24,473 bases of DNA from Tepidisphaerales bacterium (GCA_038318605.1 JBBQCK010000001.1:1-24473), one strand, 5' to 3'. Positions 1,542 through 13,475 are shown, counted from the first letter of the stretch. Numbers and translations are program-made. The notes: a model not told the origin generated them from the letters alone.

Positions 1542-2840
1542 CTATCGCCCCGACTTCAAAATCAACACTACAACCAGAACAATGTTCACCAACACCGAAG
1601 CCCCCAGCGCCGAAATCATGGTGATGCCAAACCACGGCTGCTGCATGATCGGCAGCGCTGGCTTGATCGCCTCGCCACCTCCCACTGGCACGAGATCGAC
1701 GGTTTTTCCACCCTCCTCCACCGACGCCAGCTTGTCCAGATCAACATTCCGCCGCGCGTGCGTCGGCGCCTCGCCGCGCTTCAGCGCCAGCAGATCCTCC
1801 AACATGTCCTGCGTCGATGCATACCGCTCATCGCGGTTTTTCGCCATCGCCACTTCAATCACTTCACTGATCCCCGCCGACAACGTCGTCACAATATGAT
1901 CCGGAGGCGTCAACGGATCGCGCAAATGCTTATGCATCACCGCCGTCGGTGTTTCCGCCTCAAAAGGCGGCCGGCCCGTCACAAGGTGATACATCGTCGC
2001 GCCCAACGAATAGATGTCCGCCCGGAAATCGATGTTCACATCCCCGCGAATCTGCTCCGGACTGATGTAATACGGCGTGCCGTATGCCTTGCCCGCCTCG
2101 CTCTCCGCCGCCTCCTTGTCATCCTGCGCACGGGCAAGCCCCAGATCTGTCAGCTTCGCCACACCGGCCGGCGTAAGAATAATGTTCTTAGGCTTCACGT
2201 CGCGATGAATCAGCCCGCGCTCGTGTGCATGCGCCAGCGCATCGCAGATCTGCGCCGTCACGTCCAGCGCTTCCGCCTCGGTAATCGCTCGCCCCTGGCC
2301 CACCGGCGGCGGCTGCATCACGTCATACAGCGTCAGCCCCTCAATGTACTCCATCACGAAAAAGTGATAGCCATCCGGCGTCGATGCCACATCAATCGCC
2401 TGCACGATGTTGTTGTGCGATAGCCGGGCGGCCGCCTGGCCTTCCTTGTAAAATCGGCTGACAAACTCCGGGTTGTCACTCATCCGCCGCGGAAGCACCT
2501 TGATCGCGACAATGCGATCGAGCGAAATCTGTTTCGCCTTGTAAACCGTCGCCATCGCCCCCTTGCCGAGCTTGCCCAACAACCGGTAGCCCGGAATCTG
2601 CGTGCTCGATCGCCGCTCGTCCATAGTCTGGCGAATGCGCTTCGCTTGGTTGACTGTAATGAACTCGTGATCCACCAGCAGATCGGTGATCGATCGCCCC
2701 GACGGATCGGATGATTGCTTCTGCTGCTCGCGGCAAAAGTCGAGCTCAGTGCGCGTGGCAAAGCCCATCTCCACAACCGCCTTGGCGATCTCAGAGTCGA
2801 GATTGGCTACGGAACTGCTGAGTTGACTGTCGCCGGCCAT
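1542..2840 (-). CDS. Hanks-type Ser/Thr protein kinase with an N-terminal helical domain and a C-terminal transmembrane helix (~432 aa)
   Basis: LGKGAMATVY, VAIK, HRDVKPKN, DLG (DFG position), GTPYYISPEQ, DIYSLG; hydrophobic C-terminus. Start reassigned to ATG 2840 (MAGDSQ), downstream of the predicted promoter. Confidence 0.92.
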   Translation of the reverse strand: MAGDSQLSSSVANLDSEIAKAVVEMGFATRTELDFCREQQKQSSDPSGRSITDLLVDHEFITVNQAKRIRQTMDERRSSTQIPGYRLLGKLGKGAMATVYKAKQISLDRIVAIKVLPRRMSDNPEFVSRFYKEGQAAARLSHNNIVQAIDVASTPDGYHFFVMEYIEGLTLYDVMQPPPVGQGRAITEAEALDVTAQICDALAHAHERGLIHRDVKPKNIILTPAGVAKLTDLGLARAQDDKEAAESEAGKAYGTPYYISPEQIRGDVNIDFRADIYSLGATMYHLVTGRPPFEAETPTAVMHKHLRDPLTPPDHIVTTLSAGISEVIEVAMAKNRDERYASTQDMLEDLLALKRGEAPTHARRNVDLDKLASVEEGGKTVDLVPVGGGEAIKPALPIMQQPWFGITMISALGASVLVNIVLVVVLILKSGR

Positions 2841-2933
2841 GTCGATCCGCAAGAAGAGCTGCGGTCCTTTTGGGCGTTCGCTCGCCCCCGGGCTCGTTCC
2901 AACGCCCAAGCGCGATGCATTCGGCCCGGGAGT

Positions 2934-3225: not shown

Positions 3226-6200
3226 TTAAACCTCCGCCGCCGGCGTCACCGGCAATTCATCCGGCGGTATTTCGCTGCTCAAAAACTCCTCCACCGCGTG
3301 CGACAGCCGCTCTTCCGCGCCGGCCGGGTCGCGGAAATAGTGCGGCGACCAGATGCGATGCAGCGCCCAGCCCTGGGATTTATGAACTTCCGTTCGGAAC
3401 AAATCCCATTCGACCGGATCTTCCGCGCCCGCGAATCGTGAGGCATCACACAGCACGCCAAGCGTCACATCCGCCGGGCGGGTCGGGTGGCGCAAGGCGA
3501 TATCAATGCAGAAGCCGGCGTTGCCCCAGTTCACCTGATTGGCCACCCCATGCACATCCGCAAGCCGCCGCCCGAGCGCCGCGGCGAACGGCGAGGCGCT
3601 CGCCGGCTCGTTTACATCGCACCGCGCCGCCGGCATCCCGGCCGAGCGCTCCAGAATCTCATGGCCCCGCTCGTATGCCGCGCCAAGAGACTCCGCGAAT
3701 TGCAGATAGCTGAACAGCAGCCAAGCGCCCGTCGGCACACCACCCGGCGGCACCGGCGGCAGCGAGCGATAAACCCCCGGCGGAATCGATGTCACCAGAT
3801 GCACCTCCTCGCGGGCCCGCGTCACCAGCACGTTCAATCGCCGCCCACCGCCGGCCGACGCAAGCGGACCAAACCTTCGGTAAAATTTCCCGCGCGCATC
3901 CGGCCCATACGTCGTTGAGATGATGATGTGATCGCGCTCGTCTCCCTGTACGTTCTCCAGATTCTTGACGATCAATCCCTCGAATGATCCGCGCCCTACC
4001 CGGGTGCGCGCCTCGGCAAATCGCCGGGCAAACTCGTTATCTTCCTCAACAAGATCATCGAGCTTTTCCAAAATCAGATCGCGCTGGACCACATTGAAGC
4101 ACGCGATTCCGATCGATGGCGGCGATGCGCGCTTCAACAGATCGCGCACAATCTGACACACCCGATCCGCCTCGGCCGGATTGGCGCTTTTTTCATACAC
4201 GCCATCGGCATGGTCGATCGTCAGCGGTGCAAACCGCGCCCGATGTTTGGGATGTCCCGGAATTGCCTGAAGCCGCGACCCATAAAAGTTCTGGTTGCTG
4301 AATTCGATCAAATCCGCGTTGCGGCTGCGGTAATGCACATCGAGATATGATTCCTGAATTTCCATATTCAGCGAGGCCGACAGAAGATCTTCCGTTTCGG
4401 ATTGCTGAAGCTCGAACAACTCCTGATCGCTCTCGATCTCCCGGTCATTGCTCGCCACCGCCGCAGATTCAAAAAATCGCGTCGGCGGAAGTTGCTTCTG
4501 ATCCCCGGCCACCACTACCCGCCGCGCCCGCGTCAGCACCGGCAGCGCCTCTTCCAGACGGCATTGCGATGCCTCGTCAAAAATCACAACGTCGAACAAC
4601 ATCGCGCGCGGAAAAATCTGCGCGACAGTTTCCGGGCTTGCCATCCAGATCGGCCGAAGGTCAAACAGCGGATCGCCCTCTTCAGTCTTCCCGCCCAGCT
4701 CGATCACCTTCCTCAGTCGCATCGCCTTGGTGCCGTGCAGCATGAACCGGCGCTTGACGTCTGCCCCAATCGAGTTAAGCCGCGAACCCGTGGCCGCGAG
4801 AAGCCTCTCTTTCTGCCGGCCGACCCACCGATGCAGGATCGCGTCGCGAATCAGCGCCCGCTTGGCCAGCGACAATTCGCTGAATCGATCGAACGCCTCC
4901 TGAATGTGATGCGCATCGATGGCCTGAAGGTCTGGCGCCGCCTGCAAACGCCGCGCAATCTCTCCCGCCAACACTGATTTCTTAACCACCGCCAGTGCAA
5001 TATGCGGGTCGATCCGGCCATCAATCATCGCCCTGGCCGCCCCCGTCAACGGCGCCGGCAGCGCCTCCAGCGCGTGCGCAACGCGGATCACGCCCTCCAG
5101 CGTCTCGATCGACTCCGCCATCGCCGACGACTCACGCGCGATGGCGCGGTTGGCGAGCAAAGCATCGTTGAAGTCCGCGATCCCCTTCGCCGACACGACG
5201 CCCGTTGAATGCCACGCACCAATCGCCGCCGCGATTGCTTCCGCTCGCGCCGCGGATTTTTTAAGACCGCCAATCAGCTTCGCCGCGTGTGCGCTATCGG
5301 TCATTGCCTGCAACACACCATCACGCAGGCCTGCCATGGCCGGATCGATGTAAACATTCGACAATGCTTTAACGATCACCCCGTGCGAGGTCAGCCCCTC
5401 CTCAAGGGCCTCATCCGCGATCGGACCGGCCGGCGCAGGCTGACGCGACACATCGCTGTAAATCTGTGTAAGAATCAGTCGCTCGCGAAGCTGCTGCAAA
5501 AATGCCCTGAGCCTTTCAGCATCGTCCGCGCCCAACGTCAACCCATATTGCGTCATGACATCCGACGCCAATGCCTTCTGCTTGAAGTGAATAAAAGCAT
5601 GCCACTTGCGCGCGAATCGCAGATAGGCATCGAGCGTGGAAATCTGCCGCGCAACGGCCGCGATCGTCGGCCCGGCGGCGCGCGCCGCGATGGCCAGATC
5701 GGTGTCCAATCGCTTTTGCCGAAGTCGCTGAAGCATCGGCTCGGCATCGGCGATCTGCTGGCGGCCCGTCGCAATCGACCTCGCGTCGCGCTGCGACCAG
5801 GCCTGGCGTAGGTCCGTCGATGCGCCAGCCATCGCCTTCTCAAGTAGCGACGCCATGTGCAAGCGCGCCTCCCCTTGCGCCGCGGCCGGTATTTCCCGCA
5901 AAAATGGTGGTATCGATTCATCCAGCGTCGCGTCGGCCGCAATTGCGCTTGCCGCAGCCGCGGCTGTCGCGCTGCGAACATCGGCCATCGACCGCTGCAA
6001 AAATTCCGCCAGCGTCACACCTGTTCTCGATGCCCACGGATTGACCGCAAAATCCACGCTCAGCGCCCGCCGAAGCAATTCCCCCATCGCGGCCGTCTGA
6101 CTCTCAAATTGCGCCGGCGAAATCGTCGCCAGATCCGCTTTGGGCTGAAGAGCCGGCTCCGGCAGATCGAGCCAGTCGCCAATTAATTCGTGCACCGACG

Positions 6201-8160
6201 GCGTGTGATCGTCCGGCCGATCCATCAGTGCCGCACGATGCCGCGTTAACTCGCCATGCAGTTCCACCAGCTCCGTATCGAGCTTCTGCAGCTTCTTTCC
6301 CGCCGCCGGATGCGCCCGCTGATCGGCCAGTTCGTCAATCTGCGTCCGCACCGATTTGTAAAAGTTCCGCTGATCGCGCTGCGGGTCGTGTACCACTGCG
6401 CACAGCGACTCCAGACCAAGATGCTCGAGCCGATGGTAAACCACATCGAGCGCCGTGCGCTTGTCGCACACCATCAAGACCCGCTCTCCGCGCGCAAGAT
6501 GATCGCCGATCACGTTGGTGATCGTCTGGCTTTTTCCCGTGCCCGGCGGGCCATGGATAACCAGCCCCCGGCAGGTCCGCGCCAGCCGAACCGCCCGCGC
6601 CTGACACGGGTCGGCCACGCTGATGAGGCGCTCCTCGTGGAAATCCCGCTTTGTCTCTGCCGCTGCCGCAGGCTCGGCAACACAACCCCCAAGCCCCAGC
6701 CCGACCTTCACAAAACTCTGCGCCGGCTCGGCCAGCGCCTCCCCCGCCACCAGCGCTTTTGTGTCGCGGATCAGCGCCTGATTCGCCATCGGATAAAGCC
6801 CCAGCACCGCCGAATTCAAAATCGCCGGCGCATTTTCATCTTCAGCGCGTGGCGCCGGCTTCAGCGCAAAACCCTCCCGCGCCGGCGCCCAGTTTTCGCC
6901 GTCCGCCGGCGCAAAAAGCGCCGGCGCCGCAACGCCAACCGCCCGCGCGACATGCTTGACCAGACAGGCAATTTCGCGCCAGGGCTGCTCCCCCTCAATG
7001 TCCGCAAAAAACTCTTCCTGCTCCGCCTTCTGTTGCTGCTCCAGCCACGCCAGCAAGGCGTCGTTGGGCACGATGCGATCGGCGCCCTCGCCGCGGCACG
7101 TGATCGATACGCTCGGCTTCGCGCCGCGCACGACGGTGACATCAACCGGAATAAAAGCGATCGGCGCGAGAATGCGCCGCTTGCTCCCGCCCCCCGCACC
7201 GCCCGCCGGGATGCTCAACAATGGAAACCCAATGCTGAGCACATGAACGCCCGTGTCCTGCTCGTATGTGCGTGCATCTTCGACGATGTTCCGTGCCTTG
7301 GTGAAGATGGATTGCTGTTCGATCCACGCGCGCTGCGGATCATCCCTGACCGGCAAGGCGTGGCCTCTGTCCGGCGCAGCTTTGCTCGGCGCCTCCGTCG
7401 GCGTGCCGCCCTGGCTGTAGCCGTGATCGCCACCCTCGTTGTCTCCCAACCCGGCATCGGCGATGCCCGAATTGCCACGCGGGTCGCCCCGTATCTCGAT
7501 CGCTTTCTCTGCTGGAGCTTCAACCAGATTCCCGGCCGTCGGCTCGATGTCATGCGCCGTTGCTGCGGCACCAGCGCGTTCCGGTTCAATCGCCGTTTCG
7601 CCGCTCTTTTCCCCCGGCACCATCGCTGCGCCGCCCTCAACTTCAATCTCGGCAGGCCGTGTGTCGGCCGGCGCGGCCTGTGCAGGCGCGTCCCCGCCCG
7701 GCGCGGCTTGTGCTGGTGCGTCCCCGCCCAGCGCGGCCTGTGCACGCGCGACTTCGGAAGGTGCAACTTCCGCCGAAGCGCGCTCGCCAACCGCAATGTC
7801 TTCTGTTATTTCCGACCCAAACCCGTCCCCGTCGGCCAATTGCGCGCCCCCAGCGCCATCCACGGGCGCATCGGCCGGCCCATCGCAGCTCGGTCGCGCG
7901 GCCGATTGTTCCGCCTCTGATTCGCCGTCCCCCTTGGGCGGCGGCGCCGTCACCCGGCCAACGATCGTCGCCTTCCCCTCATCCGACAGCAGCGCCTCCA
8001 GAATGGCCGTCGGCTCGATGTCTCGCAGTTTCGCCAGCGCCGTAAGATCGATGCGCTGCCGGCTAGCGTGAGGCCGGCAATTCAGCCCCGGCCCATTCAA
8101 TAGTCCCGCCAGCAGTCGATCGAGCAGTATTTCCAATACGTTTTGTCCAGAGTCGGCCAT
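3226..8160 (-). CDS. DUF4011-like / SF1 (Upf1/DNA2-type) helicase / Vsr-like (MTES_1575/DUF559-type) fusion, Hhe-like architecture (~1644 aa)
   Basis: Walker A HGPPGTGKSQT, DEASQ, GDQKQLPPT, HYRSRN, ENVQGDERD, RRLNVLVTRAR; DUF4011-like VLSIGFP..APIAFIPV..PNDALL..LGLYP; C-terminal SPF..GFCIDIA..LCD..GW..RIWS. Start ATG 8160 has SD AGGAG 5 nt upstream. Confidence 0.85.
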   Translation of the reverse strand: MADSGQNVLEILLDRLLAGLLNGPGLNCRPHASRQRIDLTALAKLRDIEPTAILEALLSDEGKATIVGRVTAPPPKGDGESEAEQSAARPSCDGPADAPVDGAGGAQLADGDGFGSEITEDIAVGERASAEVAPSEVARAQAALGGDAPAQAAPGGDAPAQAAPADTRPAEIEVEGGAAMVPGEKSGETAIEPERAGAAATAHDIEPTAGNLVEAPAEKAIEIRGDPRGNSGIADAGLGDNEGGDHGYSQGGTPTEAPSKAAPDRGHALPVRDDPQRAWIEQQSIFTKARNIVEDARTYEQDTGVHVLSIGFPLLSIPAGGAGGGSKRRILAPIAFIPVDVTVVRGAKPSVSITCRGEGADRIVPNDALLAWLEQQQKAEQEEFFADIEGEQPWREIACLVKHVARAVGVAAPALFAPADGENWAPAREGFALKPAPRAEDENAPAILNSAVLGLYPMANQALIRDTKALVAGEALAEPAQSFVKVGLGLGGCVAEPAAAAETKRDFHEERLISVADPCQARAVRLARTCRGLVIHGPPGTGKSQTITNVIGDHLARGERVLMVCDKRTALDVVYHRLEHLGLESLCAVVHDPQRDQRNFYKSVRTQIDELADQRAHPAAGKKLQKLDTELVELHGELTRHRAALMDRPDDHTPSVHELIGDWLDLPEPALQPKADLATISPAQFESQTAAMGELLRRALSVDFAVNPWASRTGVTLAEFLQRSMADVRSATAAAAASAIAADATLDESIPPFLREIPAAAQGEARLHMASLLEKAMAGASTDLRQAWSQRDARSIATGRQQIADAEPMLQRLRQKRLDTDLAIAARAAGPTIAAVARQISTLDAYLRFARKWHAFIHFKQKALASDVMTQYGLTLGADDAERLRAFLQQLRERLILTQIYSDVSRQPAPAGPIADEALEEGLTSHGVIVKALSNVYIDPAMAGLRDGVLQAMTDSAHAAKLIGGLKKSAARAEAIAAAIGAWHSTGVVSAKGIADFNDALLANRAIARESSAMAESIETLEGVIRVAHALEALPAPLTGAARAMIDGRIDPHIALAVVKKSVLAGEIARRLQAAPDLQAIDAHHIQEAFDRFSELSLAKRALIRDAILHRWVGRQKERLLAATGSRLNSIGADVKRRFMLHGTKAMRLRKVIELGGKTEEGDPLFDLRPIWMASPETVAQIFPRAMLFDVVIFDEASQCRLEEALPVLTRARRVVVAGDQKQLPPTRFFESAAVASNDREIESDQELFELQQSETEDLLSASLNMEIQESYLDVHYRSRNADLIEFSNQNFYGSRLQAIPGHPKHRARFAPLTIDHADGVYEKSANPAEADRVCQIVRDLLKRASPPSIGIACFNVVQRDLILEKLDDLVEEDNEFARRFAEARTRVGRGSFEGLIVKNLENVQGDERDHIIISTTYGPDARGKFYRRFGPLASAGGGRRLNVLVTRAREEVHLVTSIPPGVYRSLPPVPPGGVPTGAWLLFSYLQFAESLGAAYERGHEILERSAGMPAARCDVNEPASASPFAAALGRRLADVHGVANQVNWGNAGFCIDIALRHPTRPADVTLGVLCDASRFAGAEDPVEWDLFRTEVHKSQGWALHRIWSPHYFRDPAGAEERLSHAVEEFLSSEIPPDELPVTPAAEV
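7671..7750. repeat. 30-nt tandem repeat (~2.7 copies) inside the helicase gene, encoding AQAA(L/P)GGDAP
   Basis: Units start at 7671, 7701 and 7731: GCGCGGC(C/T)TGTGC(A/T)GG(C/T)GCGTCCCCGCCC(G/A). Confidence 0.9.
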
Positions 8161-8290
8161 CACTTCTCCTGGGTCTGAACCTTTTGCGCGACGCGCCATC
8201 CTACCGCCACGCCCACCGGCCGCTACCAGCCGGCCGACCAGTAGCAGCCAGGATTCATTACGCCAGCAAAACCCCGACACTGACACCGCA

Positions 8291-8494: not shown

Positions 8495-8568
8495 GGTGGT
8501 CGTAGCTCAGTTGGTAGAGCACAAGGTTGTGGTCCTTGGGGTCGCGGGTTCGAGCCCCGTCGATCACC
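8495..8568 (+). tRNA. tRNA-His (GTG), with G-1, CCA not encoded
   Basis: Acceptor stem GTGGTCG/CGATCAC, D-arm GCTC/GAGC, anticodon stem CAAGG/CCTTG with loop TTGTGGT (GTG at 8529-8531), T-loop TTCGAGC, G-1 at 8495, discriminator C8568. Confidence 0.97.
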
Positions 8569-8843
8569 CTGATTTTTATAACAGAGCGCAAAGTCGCCTC
8601 TGCGCTTCGGAACCGGCGAATGCAGCGCAATTCGGCAAGAACGCAATCGTTCTACGTGTCGCAAGACAGACTCATTCGGTCAGCATTTTTTTGCAAAGTG
8701 TTCAATGTGGAACATGTTCCTTGCAATCAGCTTTAAAGTAGACGCATGCGGACGAAATTGTCCACCCCTCTTGTGGATTCCGCCGAGCGTAACGCGGCCG
8801 GTGATCGCTGAATGGTCAAACGGTATGTGGGAGTCGATCAGTC

Positions 8844-9098
8844 ACCGGCCCCAAGTTCCGCCTCCGCGTCGAAGCATTGGCCGAGGCGTTCACGAGCATG
8901 AACGAAGACCTCTTCAAAGAGAAAAAGGCCGTGCTCAAGCAATGCGCCAAACGCGAAGAACAAATCAACCGCATGATGGAAGCCACCGTCGGCATGTACG
9001 GCGAGTTGCAGGGGATCGCGGGGAAGACGTTGGGGGAGATTGAGGGGTTGGGGATGAGAAAGGAAACAGTGTCTGCGCCGCTATTGGCGAGCACTTAG
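8844..9098 (+). pseudogene. 3' remnant of a DUF2130-like gene
   Basis: TGPKFRLRVEALAEAFTSMNEDLFKEKKAVLKQCAKREEQINRMMEATVGMYGELQGIAGKTLGEIEGL resembles the C-terminus of DUF2130 proteins as I recall them; upstream in-frame codons lose similarity and no plausible 5' part is present. Confidence 0.7.
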
Positions 9099-9193
9099 GA
9101 ATGGGGAATGGTACTGGTTTGTGTCGACAAGATGTCCCCCGCTGGTGTCCGCATCGTACGTGGGGATATTCAGCCCACGCGACAACCCTGAGA

Positions 9194-9889
9194 CTACGAA
9201 CGGGAATCATCGAGTAATTGAAACATCGCGTAGGCTTGATGCTGCCTAGATCGTGGGCGGCTTGTTCGCGGCGCTCGGCAAAGCGAGAAATCGCGTGTCT
9301 GGGGATCGAAGGTTGAAAGTCCGATTCCCCAGCGCCTCAATGCGACAGCGTATTTATCATACAGCCTCGCTTGTGACGGTGGGACGACGATCAACACTTG
9401 CTGGGCGAATGAGCGGGCCTGCTGCGCTTGGAACAATGCCCGGCGAGGGCGGTCAAGCTTTAATTCAATTGCGATGACTTCAATTTCGCGTAGCGACCGC
9501 TTGGCATTGATGGAATATGCACCGCTGGAACTACGTTTTACATACTTGTGAATGAGAAGTTCGGATAGTGCGGATTCCACGCTTCGAACTGAAAGCCCAC
9601 TATGCCGCGCAAGAAATTCGGGCGTCCGCATCGCATTCTCATGCAGCAAGGAGAAGACGAGCGACCCCGCAAGCTTCACACTGATCGTGTTACCGTTGAG
9701 GAACTTTTTCTGCGTGCGGGCCAAAGCGATGAAATCAGGACGACCTTGCTGACAATCAATCTCTCGGAAAACGCGCGAGAATCTGCCGATGCCGGGAATC
9801 CCGCGCTCGACCTCCATAAACGTCTGGAACGCATTTGCCATTTCTTCTTCGGTGTAAGCGAAGCGACGTTTTGTTGTTGCGTTCAGCAT
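9194..9889 (-). CDS. PD-(D/E)xK nuclease-fold protein with an inserted winged-helix (231 aa); gene 3 of kinase operon
   Basis: E (EEEM) ... FREIDCQQGRPDFIA ... HTH-like PEFLARHSGLSVRSVESALSELLIHKYV ... IAIELKL ... RALFQAQQARSFAQQVLIVVP; starts 4 nt after the upstream stop. Confidence 0.7.
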   Translation of the reverse strand: MLNATTKRRFAYTEEEMANAFQTFMEVERGIPGIGRFSRVFREIDCQQGRPDFIALARTQKKFLNGNTISVKLAGSLVFSLLHENAMRTPEFLARHSGLSVRSVESALSELLIHKYVKRSSSGAYSINAKRSLREIEVIAIELKLDRPRRALFQAQQARSFAQQVLIVVPPSQARLYDKYAVALRRWGIGLSTFDPQTRDFSLCRAPRTSRPRSRQHQAYAMFQLLDDSRS

Positions 9890-9893
9890 CTAT

Positions 9894-11099
9894 CTACACC
9901 CCTGCCATCGCGCGAAAGGCTATAATTGCTTCGCGCCATCCGGCCAAGTGGCCCGGCCCAGTTTGTGCTTCAAAATTGATGAAGCTCGGTCGTGCGGCGA
10001 GTCGCGCGTAAAGCGATTCAGCGCGGTCAATCATTTGCGTTGCGGATGCCAATCGGTTTGGAATTCGGCCGGTGGAGACCGGTGCCAGAATGTTGTGCAA
10101 TGATGTCCAATGGGCGAGACAGGCAATGGGATCGGTCCAACGATTCGCACCGGCGGCCGGGCCGCCTCGCAAAATTCCATCGTGCGCGGAGCCGGTCAGC
10201 ACATCATTGATGCGACCTGCGCGGAAGATGTCCTCCAGTTCAGGTTCGAGCAGTGGGGAAGACATCAAAGGCGCTGAGGAGTAACGTTTGCGTGCGCGAC
10301 CACCGCCTTCAGCAGGCATAAACCTAGCCATATTGAATTGCCGGAGTGATTGGTGCCAGCCGCTTGCCGTTCCACTTGCTCCCGCAGCGTGGAGCAACAT
10401 GCCCAACCAATCGCTGTATCCGACGAAAACTTGGTAGTCATTGACGCTAGCCAACACATGCACCATATACATCAGGTTCGCCATGGCGTTCGGATCCATA
10501 GCCGCTTGGTATGAAGAACTGTTGCGATGAACCAGAACATAGAAGCCGTTTGCTTCGAGCGAGGACAGGGCATCAAGGAATTCGGCCAGCCCGGTCGCGC
10601 TGCGTAGAGCTACTTCTGAAGTGACGATCGATACGAGCAACGGTTCGGGATTGGTCAACGTGCCGTGGTGATCGACTGCCGCCTCTGCCATATTAAGTGC
10701 GATTTGGCTCCATGAATCGCGGAAATCGTCGAACATGATATTCGGCGACACCAGATAACTGACTCCACTAAGCGTCGTATGCTGATAATTCAGACAGTCA
10801 CCGACATATCGTTCAATCTGTCGCGGGCTGAACTGCGTCCGGCTCAATCCAGCGTGAGCAGCGTAGTAATCGTATTCTGGCAGATGCCCGTCGCGGGGTG
10901 TGTTCAGTGTTGTCACATAAAACTGCGGGTCGATCATCAGCACAGCATTACCGTCCGACTCACGCAGTTCTGCGATGCATTGTTCTAGACGGTCACGCCC
11001 CTCGTCCTTCGGACTCAGAATTGCACCGGTGATCGTGCCTTCGTCCAATCCTTCGTGAACTTTCTGACCACGACCATAGCCGACCTGAGCAAGCAGCAT
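9894..11099 (-). CDS. Hypothetical 401-aa soluble alpha/beta protein (possibly TIM-barrel, beta-protein/sce7725-like); gene 2 of kinase operon
   Basis: Long ORF, ATG 2 nt after the kinase stop, SD-like GAGGGAGGG inside the kinase 3' end; alternating short hydrophobic strands (GAILSP, LMIDPQFY, YLVSP, LLVSIV, GFYVLV, VFVGY, TASGW). Fold call is inference. Confidence 0.75.
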   Translation of the reverse strand: MLLAQVGYGRGQKVHEGLDEGTITGAILSPKDEGRDRLEQCIAELRESDGNAVLMIDPQFYVTTLNTPRDGHLPEYDYYAAHAGLSRTQFSPRQIERYVGDCLNYQHTTLSGVSYLVSPNIMFDDFRDSWSQIALNMAEAAVDHHGTLTNPEPLLVSIVTSEVALRSATGLAEFLDALSSLEANGFYVLVHRNSSSYQAAMDPNAMANLMYMVHVLASVNDYQVFVGYSDWLGMLLHAAGASGTASGWHQSLRQFNMARFMPAEGGGRARKRYSSAPLMSSPLLEPELEDIFRAGRINDVLTGSAHDGILRGGPAAGANRWTDPIACLAHWTSLHNILAPVSTGRIPNRLASATQMIDRAESLYARLAARPSFINFEAQTGPGHLAGWREAIIAFRAMAGV

Positions 11100-11101
11100 G
11101 T

Positions 11102-12022
11102 TCAGTTCCCTCCCTCAGGTAATGATTCACGAAGTGCCTTTTGGAGCATTTCGATCTTGCGATAACGCAGTGCCGGGCGCTTCGCCAACAGGCGCATAAT
11201 GATGTCGCTCAGTGCTTCGGGGATGCCAGCCTGAAGCGTGTGCGGCGCGGGCGGCTGAACGTTCTTGATATTCGTCATCACTTCCCACGACGTCTGCGCA
11301 CCGCCGATGAATGGATGCACTCCGGTCGCCAATTGATAAAGAGTTACCCCGAGCGAGAACAAGTCGGATCGAAAATCAAGAATCTGCCGCCGATTCGAGA
11401 AGTCCATCTGTTCAGGTGAAAAGTAAATCGGCGTGCCAACTGGCCCCATCGACCACGACTCATCATTCAAGTCGAACACAAATCCCATATCGAGCACGAC
11501 GAAATCGCCTGTGGCCCGCTGCATGATGTTTCCGGGCTTGATGTCGCGATGAATCTTGTCGTGCTGCCAGAGCACATCGATCGCGTCGGCGACGTGCAGG
11601 CCGAGTTTGACCAACTCTGCCGGCGTCATTCCCGGCTGATTCGGTTTGAGGAGCTTTTTGATTGGTTGACCGTTGACCAATTCCTCGCTGAAGCAGATCA
11701 AATCCTCATCGCCGATCTTCACCGACCGCAATTCCACGGGACCGATCTTCACGAGATACGGCGAATCGCATTGCTTCATCGTCGCGACTTCACGCCGCGC
11801 CCGCGCGGTCACGTCGTCCAGCGAAACCTGCTGCACGCTGGCGTCCGGGTCTTGGTCGGCAAGCGGTCGCGGATTGGGTCGCAGAAACTTGAGGACGTAC
11901 GGCTGCCCCGCGATCGAGCACGAGTAAACGACCTTCTGGCCGCCCTTATCCAGATATTTCACATCGGAGGCTTCAGGCACCACAGCCCTGATTTCGTCTC
12001 CCGTGAACTGCGGAAATGGCAT
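11102..12022 (-). CDS. Soluble, stand-alone Ser/Thr protein kinase (~306 aa); gene 1 of kinase operon
   Basis: LDKGGQKVVY (atypical Gly loop), YVLKF, REV (alphaC Glu), HRDIKPGN, DMG, GTPIYFSPEQ, DLFSLG; no TM segment or sensor domain. Start ATG 12022 (alternative GTG 12049). Confidence 0.92.
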   Translation of the reverse strand: MPFPQFTGDEIRAVVPEASDVKYLDKGGQKVVYSCSIAGQPYVLKFLRPNPRPLADQDPDASVQQVSLDDVTARARREVATMKQCDSPYLVKIGPVELRSVKIGDEDLICFSEELVNGQPIKKLLKPNQPGMTPAELVKLGLHVADAIDVLWQHDKIHRDIKPGNIMQRATGDFVVLDMGFVFDLNDESWSMGPVGTPIYFSPEQMDFSNRRQILDFRSDLFSLGVTLYQLATGVHPFIGGAQTSWEVMTNIKNVQPPAPHTLQAGIPEALSDIIMRLLAKRPALRYRKIEMLQKALRESLPEGGN

Positions 12023-12028
12023 AATTGT

Positions 12029-12056
12029 ATTCTCGTAAGTTGATTTCACATGTCAA
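12029..12056 (-). promoter_or_regulatory. Candidate promoter for the kinase operon (possibly leaderless)
   Basis: Minus strand TTGACA (12056-12051), 16 nt, GAGAAT (12034-12029), 6 nt, ATG 12022. The -10 lacks the first T. Confidence 0.35.
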
Positions 12057-12059
12057 TGC

Positions 12060-12415
12060 GATGTGTTGGCGCAGGTGTCGTTGCGGCAGTTGCTTTGGTT
12101 TCCGCCGAATCAGAAGGATCGGGCTGCTTGCAGCGGTGGCGGAACAAGGTAGGGCAGAAGTCGGTGGATTTTGTGGTGTGTGAGGCGGGGACGTTGCGGC
12201 CGCTCGTCGTGATCGAGTTGGATGAGCCTTCGCACGCCAAGCCGGAGCGGCAGACGAGGGATGAGGACGTCGAGGCGATCCTCGGGGCCGCGAAGTTGCC
12301 GTTGTTGCATGTCCTCACGTCGCGAAATTACGACACCCGCGAACTGGAGGCGGCGATCGGGCCTTTTCTGGGTGCCATCGTCCGCCCCAATCCGCCACCC
12401 ACGATCCGAGGCTAA
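12060..12415 (+). pseudogene. 5'-truncated, frameshifted DUF2726-like gene
   Basis: Frame A DVLAQVSLRQLLWFPPNQKDRA(A) joins frame B LQRWRNKVGQKSVDFVVCEAGTLRPLVVIELDEPSH...RDEDVEAILGAAKLPLLHV by a single missing base at ~12127-12128; the N-terminal part is absent. Confidence 0.75.
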
Positions 12416-12539
12416 TCCCTCCTCGCTTGATGCTATCCCGGCCTCCGACCCGTCCGGCGCGCCCAACATGCGTGAGAAAGCAGCGCTGTCACTCCGCCCC
12501 CCTGCACTCTTCCCCTCCAACCCCCTACAATCCCGCCCC

Positions 12540-13475
12540 ATGGGCTTCTTTCAGAAAACGCGCGACAAGCTGATCCGCGCACTTCGCAAAACGGCGCAGG
12601 TGCTCGATACCGATATCCGCACGCTCTTCATTCCCGGGCGGCAGATTGATGATGCGTTTCTTGGCGAACTTGAATCCAAGCTCATCCGCGCCGACATGGG
12701 CGTGCGAAACGTTGATCGCATCGTCGCCGCGGTGCGCGAGCGCTGGCGGCTTGGGAAGCTTCGCAACGCATCCGAAGCCGAGGGAATCGTCCGCGAGCAG
12801 CTCATGGCCGGCTGGCCGGAGCAGAATCGCGAACTCGCCATCGCGCCGGCCGGGCCGACCGTCATCCTTGTTGCCGGCGTCAACGGCGCGGGCAAGACAA
12901 CCAGCATCGCCAAACTGGCCTGGCTTCTGACGCAGGTCGAGAAGAAAAAGGTCATGCTCTGCGCCGGCGACACATTTCGGGCGGCCGCCGTTCAGCAGCT
13001 TGGCATCTGGGCCGACCGGCTCGGCGTCGAGATCGTCAAACATCGCCAGGGCGCCGACCCCGCGGCCGTCGCCTATGACGCCGCCGAGGCTGCCAAAAGC
13101 CGCGGTATGGATGTGCTGATCGTGGACACCGCCGGCCGGTTGCCGACACAGGAACCGCTGATCCGCGAACTGGTTAAAATTCGCGACGTCGTTGCCCGGC
13201 GCATCGAAGGCGCGCCCCACGAAGTCCTGCTCGTTCTCGACGCCACCACCGGCCAAAACGCCGTCAACCAGGCCCGCGTCTTCGGCGCCGCGATTGACGT
13301 GACCGGCATCTTCCTTGCCAAACTCGACGGCACGGCCAAGGGCGGCGTGGTCATGGCCATTCGCGACCAACTCCAAATCCCGGTAAAATTCATCGGCTTG
13401 GGCGAAACCCCCGAAGACATCGAAACCTTCGACCCCAGCCGCTTCATCGGCGCACTGTTTGGCCAGGCAGAATGA
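12540..13475 (+). CDS. ftsY: Signal recognition particle receptor FtsY (NG domain only, 311 aa)
   Basis: GVNGAGKTTSIAKLA, DTFRAAAVQQL, DPAAVAYDA, DTAGRL, DATTGQNA, AKLDGTAKGG, GLGE..DIETFDP. Start ATG 12540 (MGFFQK). Confidence 0.96.
   Translation: MGFFQKTRDKLIRALRKTAQVLDTDIRTLFIPGRQIDDAFLGELESKLIRADMGVRNVDRIVAAVRERWRLGKLRNASEAEGIVREQLMAGWPEQNRELAIAPAGPTVILVAGVNGAGKTTSIAKLAWLLTQVEKKKVMLCAGDTFRAAAVQQLGIWADRLGVEIVKHRQGADPAAVAYDAAEAAKSRGMDVLIVDTAGRLPTQEPLIRELVKIRDVVARRIEGAPHEVLLVLDATTGQNAVNQARVFGAAIDVTGIFLAKLDGTAKGGVVMAIRDQLQIPVKFIGLGETPEDIETFDPSRFIGALFGQAE

Follow-up and report, generated by a model that had tools for sequence, protein, structure and literature searches.

A barrel protein with a predicted tRNA-guanine transglycosylase fold, encoded between a Ser/Thr kinase and a nuclease in a mobile gene cassette, as a candidate kinase regulator

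The middle gene of a three-gene operon in a 24,473-nucleotide (nt) stretch of DNA from a Tepidisphaerales bacterium (GCA_038318605.1 JBBQCK010000001.1:1-24473; hereafter the window) encodes a TIM-barrel protein that, as judged from its structural model, has the fold of the tRNA-guanine transglycosylases (TGTs) and belongs to an uncatalogued family. This gene, P0001 (9894..11099, minus strand), runs from ATG to stop over 401 amino acids (aa) and is real and well conserved. It follows a Ser/Thr protein kinase gene and precedes the gene of a PD-(D/E)xK-type nuclease. The kinase-barrel-nuclease cassette is horizontally mobile, its kinase-barrel pair is obligate and translationally coupled, and by analogy with the gop-beta-cII locus of satellite P4 it is probably an undescribed anti-phage or conflict system with the same layout. 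Within the cassette the barrel may have a regulatory or sensing role and restrain the kinase, a reading to which we give a probability of roughly 45%.

An AlphaFold2 model of P0001 was computed from a 29-sequence alignment (predicted local distance difference test score, pLDDT, 79.4; predicted template modelling score, pTM, 0.84) and displays eight β/α units followed by a C-terminal helical region. The strands, assigned with DSSP, comprise residues 2-5, 25-28, 53-56, 116-123 (broken), 154-161, 185-191, 223-226 and 243-247, and the loop after β8 (249-285) is highly conserved and of low confidence (pLDDT ~30). The model thereby bears out the TIM-barrel-like domain that a first-pass annotation of the window had proposed. 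Of the eight strands claimed there by motif, seven (LSPKD 28-32, IDPQFY 56-61, VSPN 117-120, VSIV 156-159, YVLVHR 187-192, VGYSD 226-230 and ASGWH 245-249) lie on β2-β8 or at their C-terminal ends, whereas the eighth (RYSSAPL 272-278) is loop and the true β1 (LLAQ, 2-5) had been missed.

Comparison of the model with the Protein Data Bank (PDB) in Foldseek returned TGTs in all of the best 50 rows (E ~1e-5, TM 0.40-0.53), TGT and DpdA barrels being among the targets that the annotation had named for such a search. A second structural aligner, independent of Foldseek, gave Z scores of 19.6 for archaeosine TGT (1iq8; 298 residues aligned, 3.2 Å), 18.9 for a bacterial TGT (3unt; 300 residues aligned), 15.8 for QTRT2 (6fv5) and 14.6 for the DNA preQ0 insertase DpdA (7ui4), while the immune protein Cap10 (9ntn) scored below the true TGTs at 13.7. 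Generic barrels (GH5, pyruvate kinase) reached Z scores of at most 14.3, with at most 256 residues aligned. These scores confirm the barrel and make the likeness specific to the TGT superfamily (PF01702), since it takes in both the (β/α)8 barrel and the TGT-type C-terminal region. The N-terminal three-stranded sheet of TGTs is missing, residue 1 of the model aligning at about residue 35-41 of the TGT chains.

An ordinary metabolic TIM-barrel enzyme (a glycosidase, aldolase or similar) that merely sits beside the kinase is highly improbable on this evidence. TGT-superfamily chains score 5 Z units higher with ~45 more residues aligned, the catalytic Glu pair of GH-A type on β4/β7 is absent, and no Pfam/NCBIfam match was found among 122 members of the family. 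Against it also stand the unbroken linkage with the kinase and nuclease genes in different phyla and in an archaeon, the sparse distribution of the barrel family (19 of 401 Planctomycetota genomes, ~5%, over 19 of 288 genera), and the separate, normal TGT of the genome. A GH5-like or pyruvate-kinase-like enzyme was rejected because of the gap in Z score, the absent catalytic pattern and the gene context. P0001 is likewise not a housekeeping TGT, because ordinary TGT fragments occur on other contigs of the same genome; nor is the P0001 gene linked to queuosine or preQ0 genes.

At the level of sequence the family is large and nameless. At a threshold of E<=1e-3, a word-indexed search yielded no fewer than 208 homologues, each ~400 aa long, and an exhaustive HMMER search at least 666 cluster representatives, 369 of them at E<=1e-10; all of the representatives are labelled 'hypothetical' and none has a Pfam domain. 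Mean column identity is 67% when close members are aligned and falls to 36% in a diverse set. P0001 matched nothing in Pfam, NCBIfam, PHROGs, PADLOC or the PDB sequences, and ESM Atlas held only unnamed 'hypothetical protein' clusters for it. The Pfam/NCBIfam scans, in which 122 diverse members were also run singly, produced no match, including none to the unrelated housekeeping families that might have explained the protein otherwise, and the family profile found nothing among PDB sequences. Fused or long forms were not found in a search for longer homologues, which is weak evidence. PADLOC-DB 2.0 contains no model for the barrel or the cassette nuclease, and no paper describing the cassette or the barrel family was found in the literature.

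Sequence tests against the two barrel families of interest were negative as well. Neither P0001 nor any of the 122 members matched PF01702, and hhalign of the family against 30 TGTs gave a probability of 0.2%. The same held for PF14350, the family of P4 Beta: no match was obtained for P0001 (E<=1) or for the 122 members with PF14350 or with the PADLOC models 'beta' and 'PD-Lambda-2_C', whereas the positive controls scored strongly, P4 beta with 8e-188 against 'beta' and a PF14350 protein from a planctomycete with 2e-59 against PD-Lambda-2_C. Profile comparison of the P0001 family with P4 beta/PF14350 reached a probability of 0.5-0.7%, yet PF14350 against TGT fails likewise (0.15%), so the method has no power here and the profile negatives are not evidence of unrelatedness. 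By the model searches P0001 is not a member of PF14350. As a separate observation, planctomycete PF14350 proteins (L032:1471-2559, minus strand) fit PD-Lambda-2_C (PADLOC PDLC03983-85) better than P4 'beta', so that PF14350 sits in two catalogued defence systems.

The kinase gene lies upstream of P0001 at 11102..12022 (minus strand) and encodes a catalytic core only, with no sensor domain. Its start was taken as the ATG at 12022, the open reading frame (ORF) being open up to a GTG at 12049. The product matches Pfam Pkinase (1.9e-28) and the PADLOC models PD-T4-6 (1.2e-38) and mad6 (1.5e-33), and in a set of 37 cassette kinases the catalytic Lys, αC Glu, HRDxKPxN, DxG and PE motifs are conserved at 90% or better. 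Only 2 nt separate the kinase stop from the barrel ATG, and 4 nt the barrel stop from the start of the nuclease gene P0003 (9194..9889, minus strand). P0003 is 231 aa long, bears the motifs GRPDF...IELK...QAQQ and contains an inserted winged-helix-like segment with weak matches to Pfam winged helix-turn-helix (wHTH) models. NF033832 (sce7726) did not match P0003, and BLASTP of the cassette nuclease against P4 cII found nothing; hhalign of 26 cassette nucleases against 11 sce7726/cII proteins gave a probability of 50.8% (E 1.6e-4, 123 columns) over the ExK...QxxxY region, which makes a relation between the two suggestive, not proven. Upstream of the operon a promoter-like site (TTGACA-16-GAGAAT, 10/12; 12029..12056, minus strand) was identified as a consensus match only, in a region where 3 such sites were found against 1.7 expected from shuffles. 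It is the sole strong promoter-like site of the operon and ends 7 nt before the kinase ATG, and for that reason the transcript may be leaderless or very short-leadered.

The arrangement of the three genes was compared at 50 loci, namely the window, 29 from a species-level genome collection, 17 further Planctomycetota and 3 plasmids. A cassette-type kinase lies immediately upstream of the barrel at all 48 loci with upstream DNA, the gap being -4 to +11 nt, and a member of the nuclease family, as recognised by a family hidden Markov model (HMM), is present at all 46 loci with the relevant flank. Position and strand of the nuclease gene vary while the kinase-barrel adjacency is constant: 23 loci plus 2 partial ones have the order kinase > barrel > nuclease (A), 9 have kinase > barrel followed by a convergent nuclease (B; 3' ends overlapping by 11-45 nt in the 5 measured), and 12 have nuclease > kinase > barrel (C). 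The three proteins also diverge together, the Spearman correlation of pairwise distances being 0.86 for barrel and kinase (reached in 0 of 500 permutations) and 0.67 for barrel and nuclease.

Carriers are found among Planctomycetota, Nitrospiraceae, Competibacter, Zixibacteria, Hydrogenedentes, Cloacimonadales, Fibrobacterota, Acidobacteriota, Clostridia, Pelotomaculum, Bacillus, Polaromonas and the haloarchaeon Natribaculum, and three copies are on plasmids, one of them archaeal (haloarchaeal). Elsewhere the cassette stands between a type IIG restriction-modification (RM) enzyme (2e-124) and Dsr2 (2e-174), and other copies lie beside type I restriction endonucleases (REases) or a PtuA/AriA-like ATPase (Septu-like). 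Plasmid copies, a patchy distribution, location in a low-GC island and a tightly coupled gene pair would suit a module of the addiction or toxin-antitoxin kind, one that lends stability to mobile elements and has no anti-phage role, with the barrel as antitoxin of the kinase. We regard such a module as quite unlikely, as most copies are chromosomal and often in defence islands and the third gene, the nuclease, is strictly retained; a toxin-antitoxin-like architecture is moreover compatible with defence, gop-beta-cII being both.

Several loci depart from the intact three-gene form. In one decayed copy (L015:5526-9886) the kinase is interrupted by a 468-aa ORF without a Pfam match and the nuclease is in two separate pieces, in another, on a Bacillus bombysepticus plasmid (L096:4977-6167), the barrel is split into two ORFs, and a third (L029) consists of fragments only. 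An optional fourth gene of 207-222 aa occurs between barrel and nuclease in a Nitrospiraceae metagenome-assembled genome (MAG) and an unclassified MAG (L007:2381-3049 and L014:7645-8268, both plus strand); the two copies are 39% identical (E 1e-47) and neither has a Pfam match. Plasmid pPNAP03 of the cultured, sequenced strain Polaromonas naphthalenivorans CJ2 carries an apparently intact order-C cassette (L095; 148.3-150.9 kb), in which PNAP_RS23575 and PNAP_RS23580 are preceded by the nuclease ORF (locus 3670-4191); this ORF is missing from the PLSDB gene table, a table known to be incomplete.

Conservation within the barrel was assessed in 152 aligned sequences, deepest clades included, and in a separate 122-member alignment of diverse members. 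D57 is invariant in the larger set (152/152, 100%), and residues conserved there at 80% or more are Q5, G7, G25, S29, P30, P58, Q59, Y76, Q106, P119, G185-F-Y187, N220, G227-Y228-x-D230, G247-W248, G265-G266, R272-Y273-x-S275, D307, W321, W331 and W388. D57, D230 and W248 belong to motifs in which the first-pass annotation had proposed to map the conservation of acidic and aromatic residues. In the barrel part the conserved residues are on or just past the strand ends, on the (C-terminal) face where TIM barrels usually have their active site. In the model D57, Y61, Q5, P119, Y187, Y228, D230 and W248 would together form a conserved pocket on this face. D57 comes just after β3 with the aromatic Y61 at +4, and from strand order and alignment ranges the two appear to stand, in topological terms, where TGTs have their catalytic base and the Tyr that stacks on the substrate side of it, as with Asp102 and Tyr106 of Zymomonas mobilis TGT. 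β8 (243-247) ends in G247-W248 instead of an Asp, the sole other conserved Asp of the barrel part (D230) following β7, so that on the same grounds the TGT nucleophile position on β8 would read G-W in this family. The zinc motif CxCxxC...H is absent from P0001, and Cys stays below 90% conservation at every position of the 122-member alignment and below 80% in the 152-sequence set; with no cysteine conserved, the family lacks the zinc site of TGTs. Since the zinc site is missing and the β8 nucleophile position appears not to be conserved, we consider a role as regulator or sensor likelier than canonical base exchange.

The same residues bear on the possibility that the barrel is itself the toxic effector, or one of two: a TGT-derived N-glycosidase or other base-excising enzyme acting on tRNA or DNA and activated by the kinase, for instance through the conserved basic G-G-R-x-P-R-x-R-Y-x-S loop, with the nuclease cutting the damaged nucleic acid. 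The TGT-like fold with its invariant Asp at the presumed catalytic-base position would fit this proposal, as would the conserved R272-Y273-x-S275 loop immediately past β8, the constant presence of the nuclease, and a degree of conservation close to that of the kinase (33% vs 36% mean pairwise identity), as expected of an enzyme. It is nonetheless somewhat unlikely, given that the β8 nucleophile position would read G247-W248 with no conserved Asp, that the ligands of the zinc subdomain, an aid to nucleic acid binding in TGTs, are absent, that the loop is modelled without confidence, and that the coupled order of effector first and barrel second matches P4 gop-beta, in which the barrel is the protective partner. 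As to the loop itself, a phospho-acceptor site for the kinase at R-K-R-Y-S-S is possible but unsupported, this segment being of low confidence in the model. PF14350 proteins, which lack a kinase partner, carry R-Y-T on a similarly placed hairpin, which may or may not be its counterpart.

Resemblance to DpdA raises a further alternative, a modification-restriction system in which a DpdA-like barrel would mark the cell's own DNA by inserting or exchanging a base, DNA without the mark would be restricted by the nuclease, and both would be under the control of the kinase. A nuclease with a DNA-binding wHTH-like insert and the location of the cassette among RM genes in some genomes are in keeping with it. 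It is unlikely, however, when set against the composition of the cassette, whose three genes are conserved over the 50 loci with no DpdB-like ATPase and no QueC/D/E-type precursor genes, and against the missing zinc motif and the apparent lack of a β8 nucleophile. The tightest coupling and co-divergence of the barrel are, moreover, with the kinase and not with the nuclease (0.86 vs 0.67), and it is the nuclease that shifts position and strand while the kinase-barrel adjacency never varies.

We return to the barrel as a regulatory or sensing partner of the kinase. In the mechanism that we favour, the kinase would be bound by the barrel and held inactive for as long as the cell is uninfected, on the model of P4 Beta with Gop and of Cap10 with CdnD, and the pocket of the barrel would bind or act on either a ligand of nucleobase type or part of the partner protein. 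Infection would then disturb this state and set free both kinase and nuclease, which would stop the cell or the phage. A more specific version, in which the TGT-fold protein gates a eukaryotic-like Ser/Thr kinase by nucleobase-type chemistry, either by sensing a modified base or nucleotide that arises in infected cells or by marking the kinase covalently, is tentative and rather doubtful. Several points weigh against regulation by the barrel in an immune system. That D57 corresponds to the catalytic Asp of TGTs is read from strand order and alignment ranges only, and the strong conservation of polar pocket residues fits a true enzyme equally well as a regulator. As no sequence link to PF14350 was found, the analogy with Beta rests on fold class and gene syntax. 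In other genomes some of the neighbours are ordinary secreted proteins, so the context of the cassette is defence-enriched but not exclusively so, and the barrel family has no match in the phage collection.

If the cassette works as proposed, a protein kinase would join the effectors of the 'effector + TGT-like barrel + REase' design, for which P4 gop-beta-cII, PD-Lambda-2 and one computational preprint of 2026 have so far been the only sources. P0001 appears much closer to the true base-exchange enzymes than P4 Beta is, and this closeness makes the function of the Beta-type barrel, a long-standing question, directly testable. Candidate functional residues are D57, Y61, D230, W248 and Y273/S275, the kinase offers a simple read-out, and Polaromonas naphthalenivorans CJ2 is a cultured carrier. 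Gating by nucleobase chemistry, if true, would mean that immunity has drawn on the TGT fold independently for a third time, DpdA and Cap10 being the earlier two cases, and that bacterial protein kinases can be controlled in a new way, over a range from Planctomycetota to Bacillus and haloarchaea. For annotation pipelines the gain is an uncatalogued family as large as the exhaustive search indicates (at least 666 cluster representatives).

In the window the cassette occupies an island of lower GC content (54-56% over 8500-12000, vs 60-67% in the flanks). One boundary is a tRNA-His gene detected by ARAGORN (8496..8569, plus strand). The other edge, between the cassette and ftsY, is a DUF2726 gene remnant (12050..12415, plus strand; PF10881, 2.3e-16) that covers only profile positions 47-123 of 126 and looks like what is left of an earlier occupant of this tRNA-His/ftsY island site. 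FtsY is encoded at 12222-13475 (SRP54 GTPase domain, 7e-72), with recA next. Beyond the tRNA-His gene, and outside the cassette, lies a defence gene of a known type, for a 1686-aa PDC-S37/Hhe-like helicase-nuclease (3226..8286, minus strand), with matches to PADLOC PDC-S37 (1.6e-164) and Hhe (6.9e-80) and to Pfam AAA_11/AAA_12, DUF4011 and REase_MTES_1575; no such gene was found at the other cassette loci. An unrelated second Ser/Thr kinase of 455 aa (1542-2909, minus strand; Pkinase, 8.7e-51) is also outside the island.

Among known systems, the Dpd system shares a TGT-fold protein with the cassette but not its companions: only kinase, barrel and nuclease are conserved over the 50 loci, the flanks vary, and no DpdB-like ATPase or QueC/D/E-type genes were found there. 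The cassette kinase resembles the defence kinases PD-T4-6 and Stk2, matching PD-T4-6 models at 1e-38 with all catalytic motifs kept, yet PD-T4-6 is catalogued as a single-gene system, whereas the cassette kinase never occurs without barrel and nuclease at the 50 loci. Cap10 of type IV CBASS (cyclic oligonucleotide-based anti-phage signalling system) has the TGT fold without the zinc site and inactivates CdnD by binding to it (10.1101/2025.04.06.647259). It is like P0001 in being a zinc-less TGT fold and the partner of a signalling enzyme, in an operon that serves immunity in the case of Cap10 and probably does so in that of P0001, and unlike it in that this partner is a CD-NTase instead of a protein kinase and that Cap10 works with the QueC-like Cap9 to attach a deazaguanine to the partner, the P0001 cassette having no QueC-like gene.

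The closest parallel in layout is P4. Its gop-beta-cII locus, in which gop is toxic when beta is absent, confers protection from lambda and P1 on E. coli (PMC9122126). In P4, gop is followed after a 2-nt gap by beta (PF14350) and then by convergent cII, a sce7726-family nuclease. The barrel gene directly follows its coupled effector gene in both systems, with the same 2-nt gap in the window, and a convergent PD-(D/E)xK nuclease is found in P4, at 9 planctomycete PF14350 loci (where PF14350 and sce7726 genes are convergent neighbours 17-23 nt apart) and in clade B of the P0001 family. The comparison with P4 Beta drawn by the first-pass annotation, whose interpretation is supported in part, draws on gene syntax and fold class and does not extend to sequence, the conserved motifs of PF14350 differing from those of the P0001 family. 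A preprint of October 2026 unifies PF14350 ('TIM-B') with the TGT barrel and proposes that TIM-B is a negative regulator of variable effectors accompanied by a convergent REase (10.64898/2026.10.19.760177). TIM-B has many effectors, among which a kinase is not listed, whereas the partner of the P0001 family is a kinase throughout the 50 loci. The P0001 family is uncatalogued, distinct from TIM-B and much more TGT-like, and it joins a kinase effector to the design known from TIM-B and gop-beta-cII.

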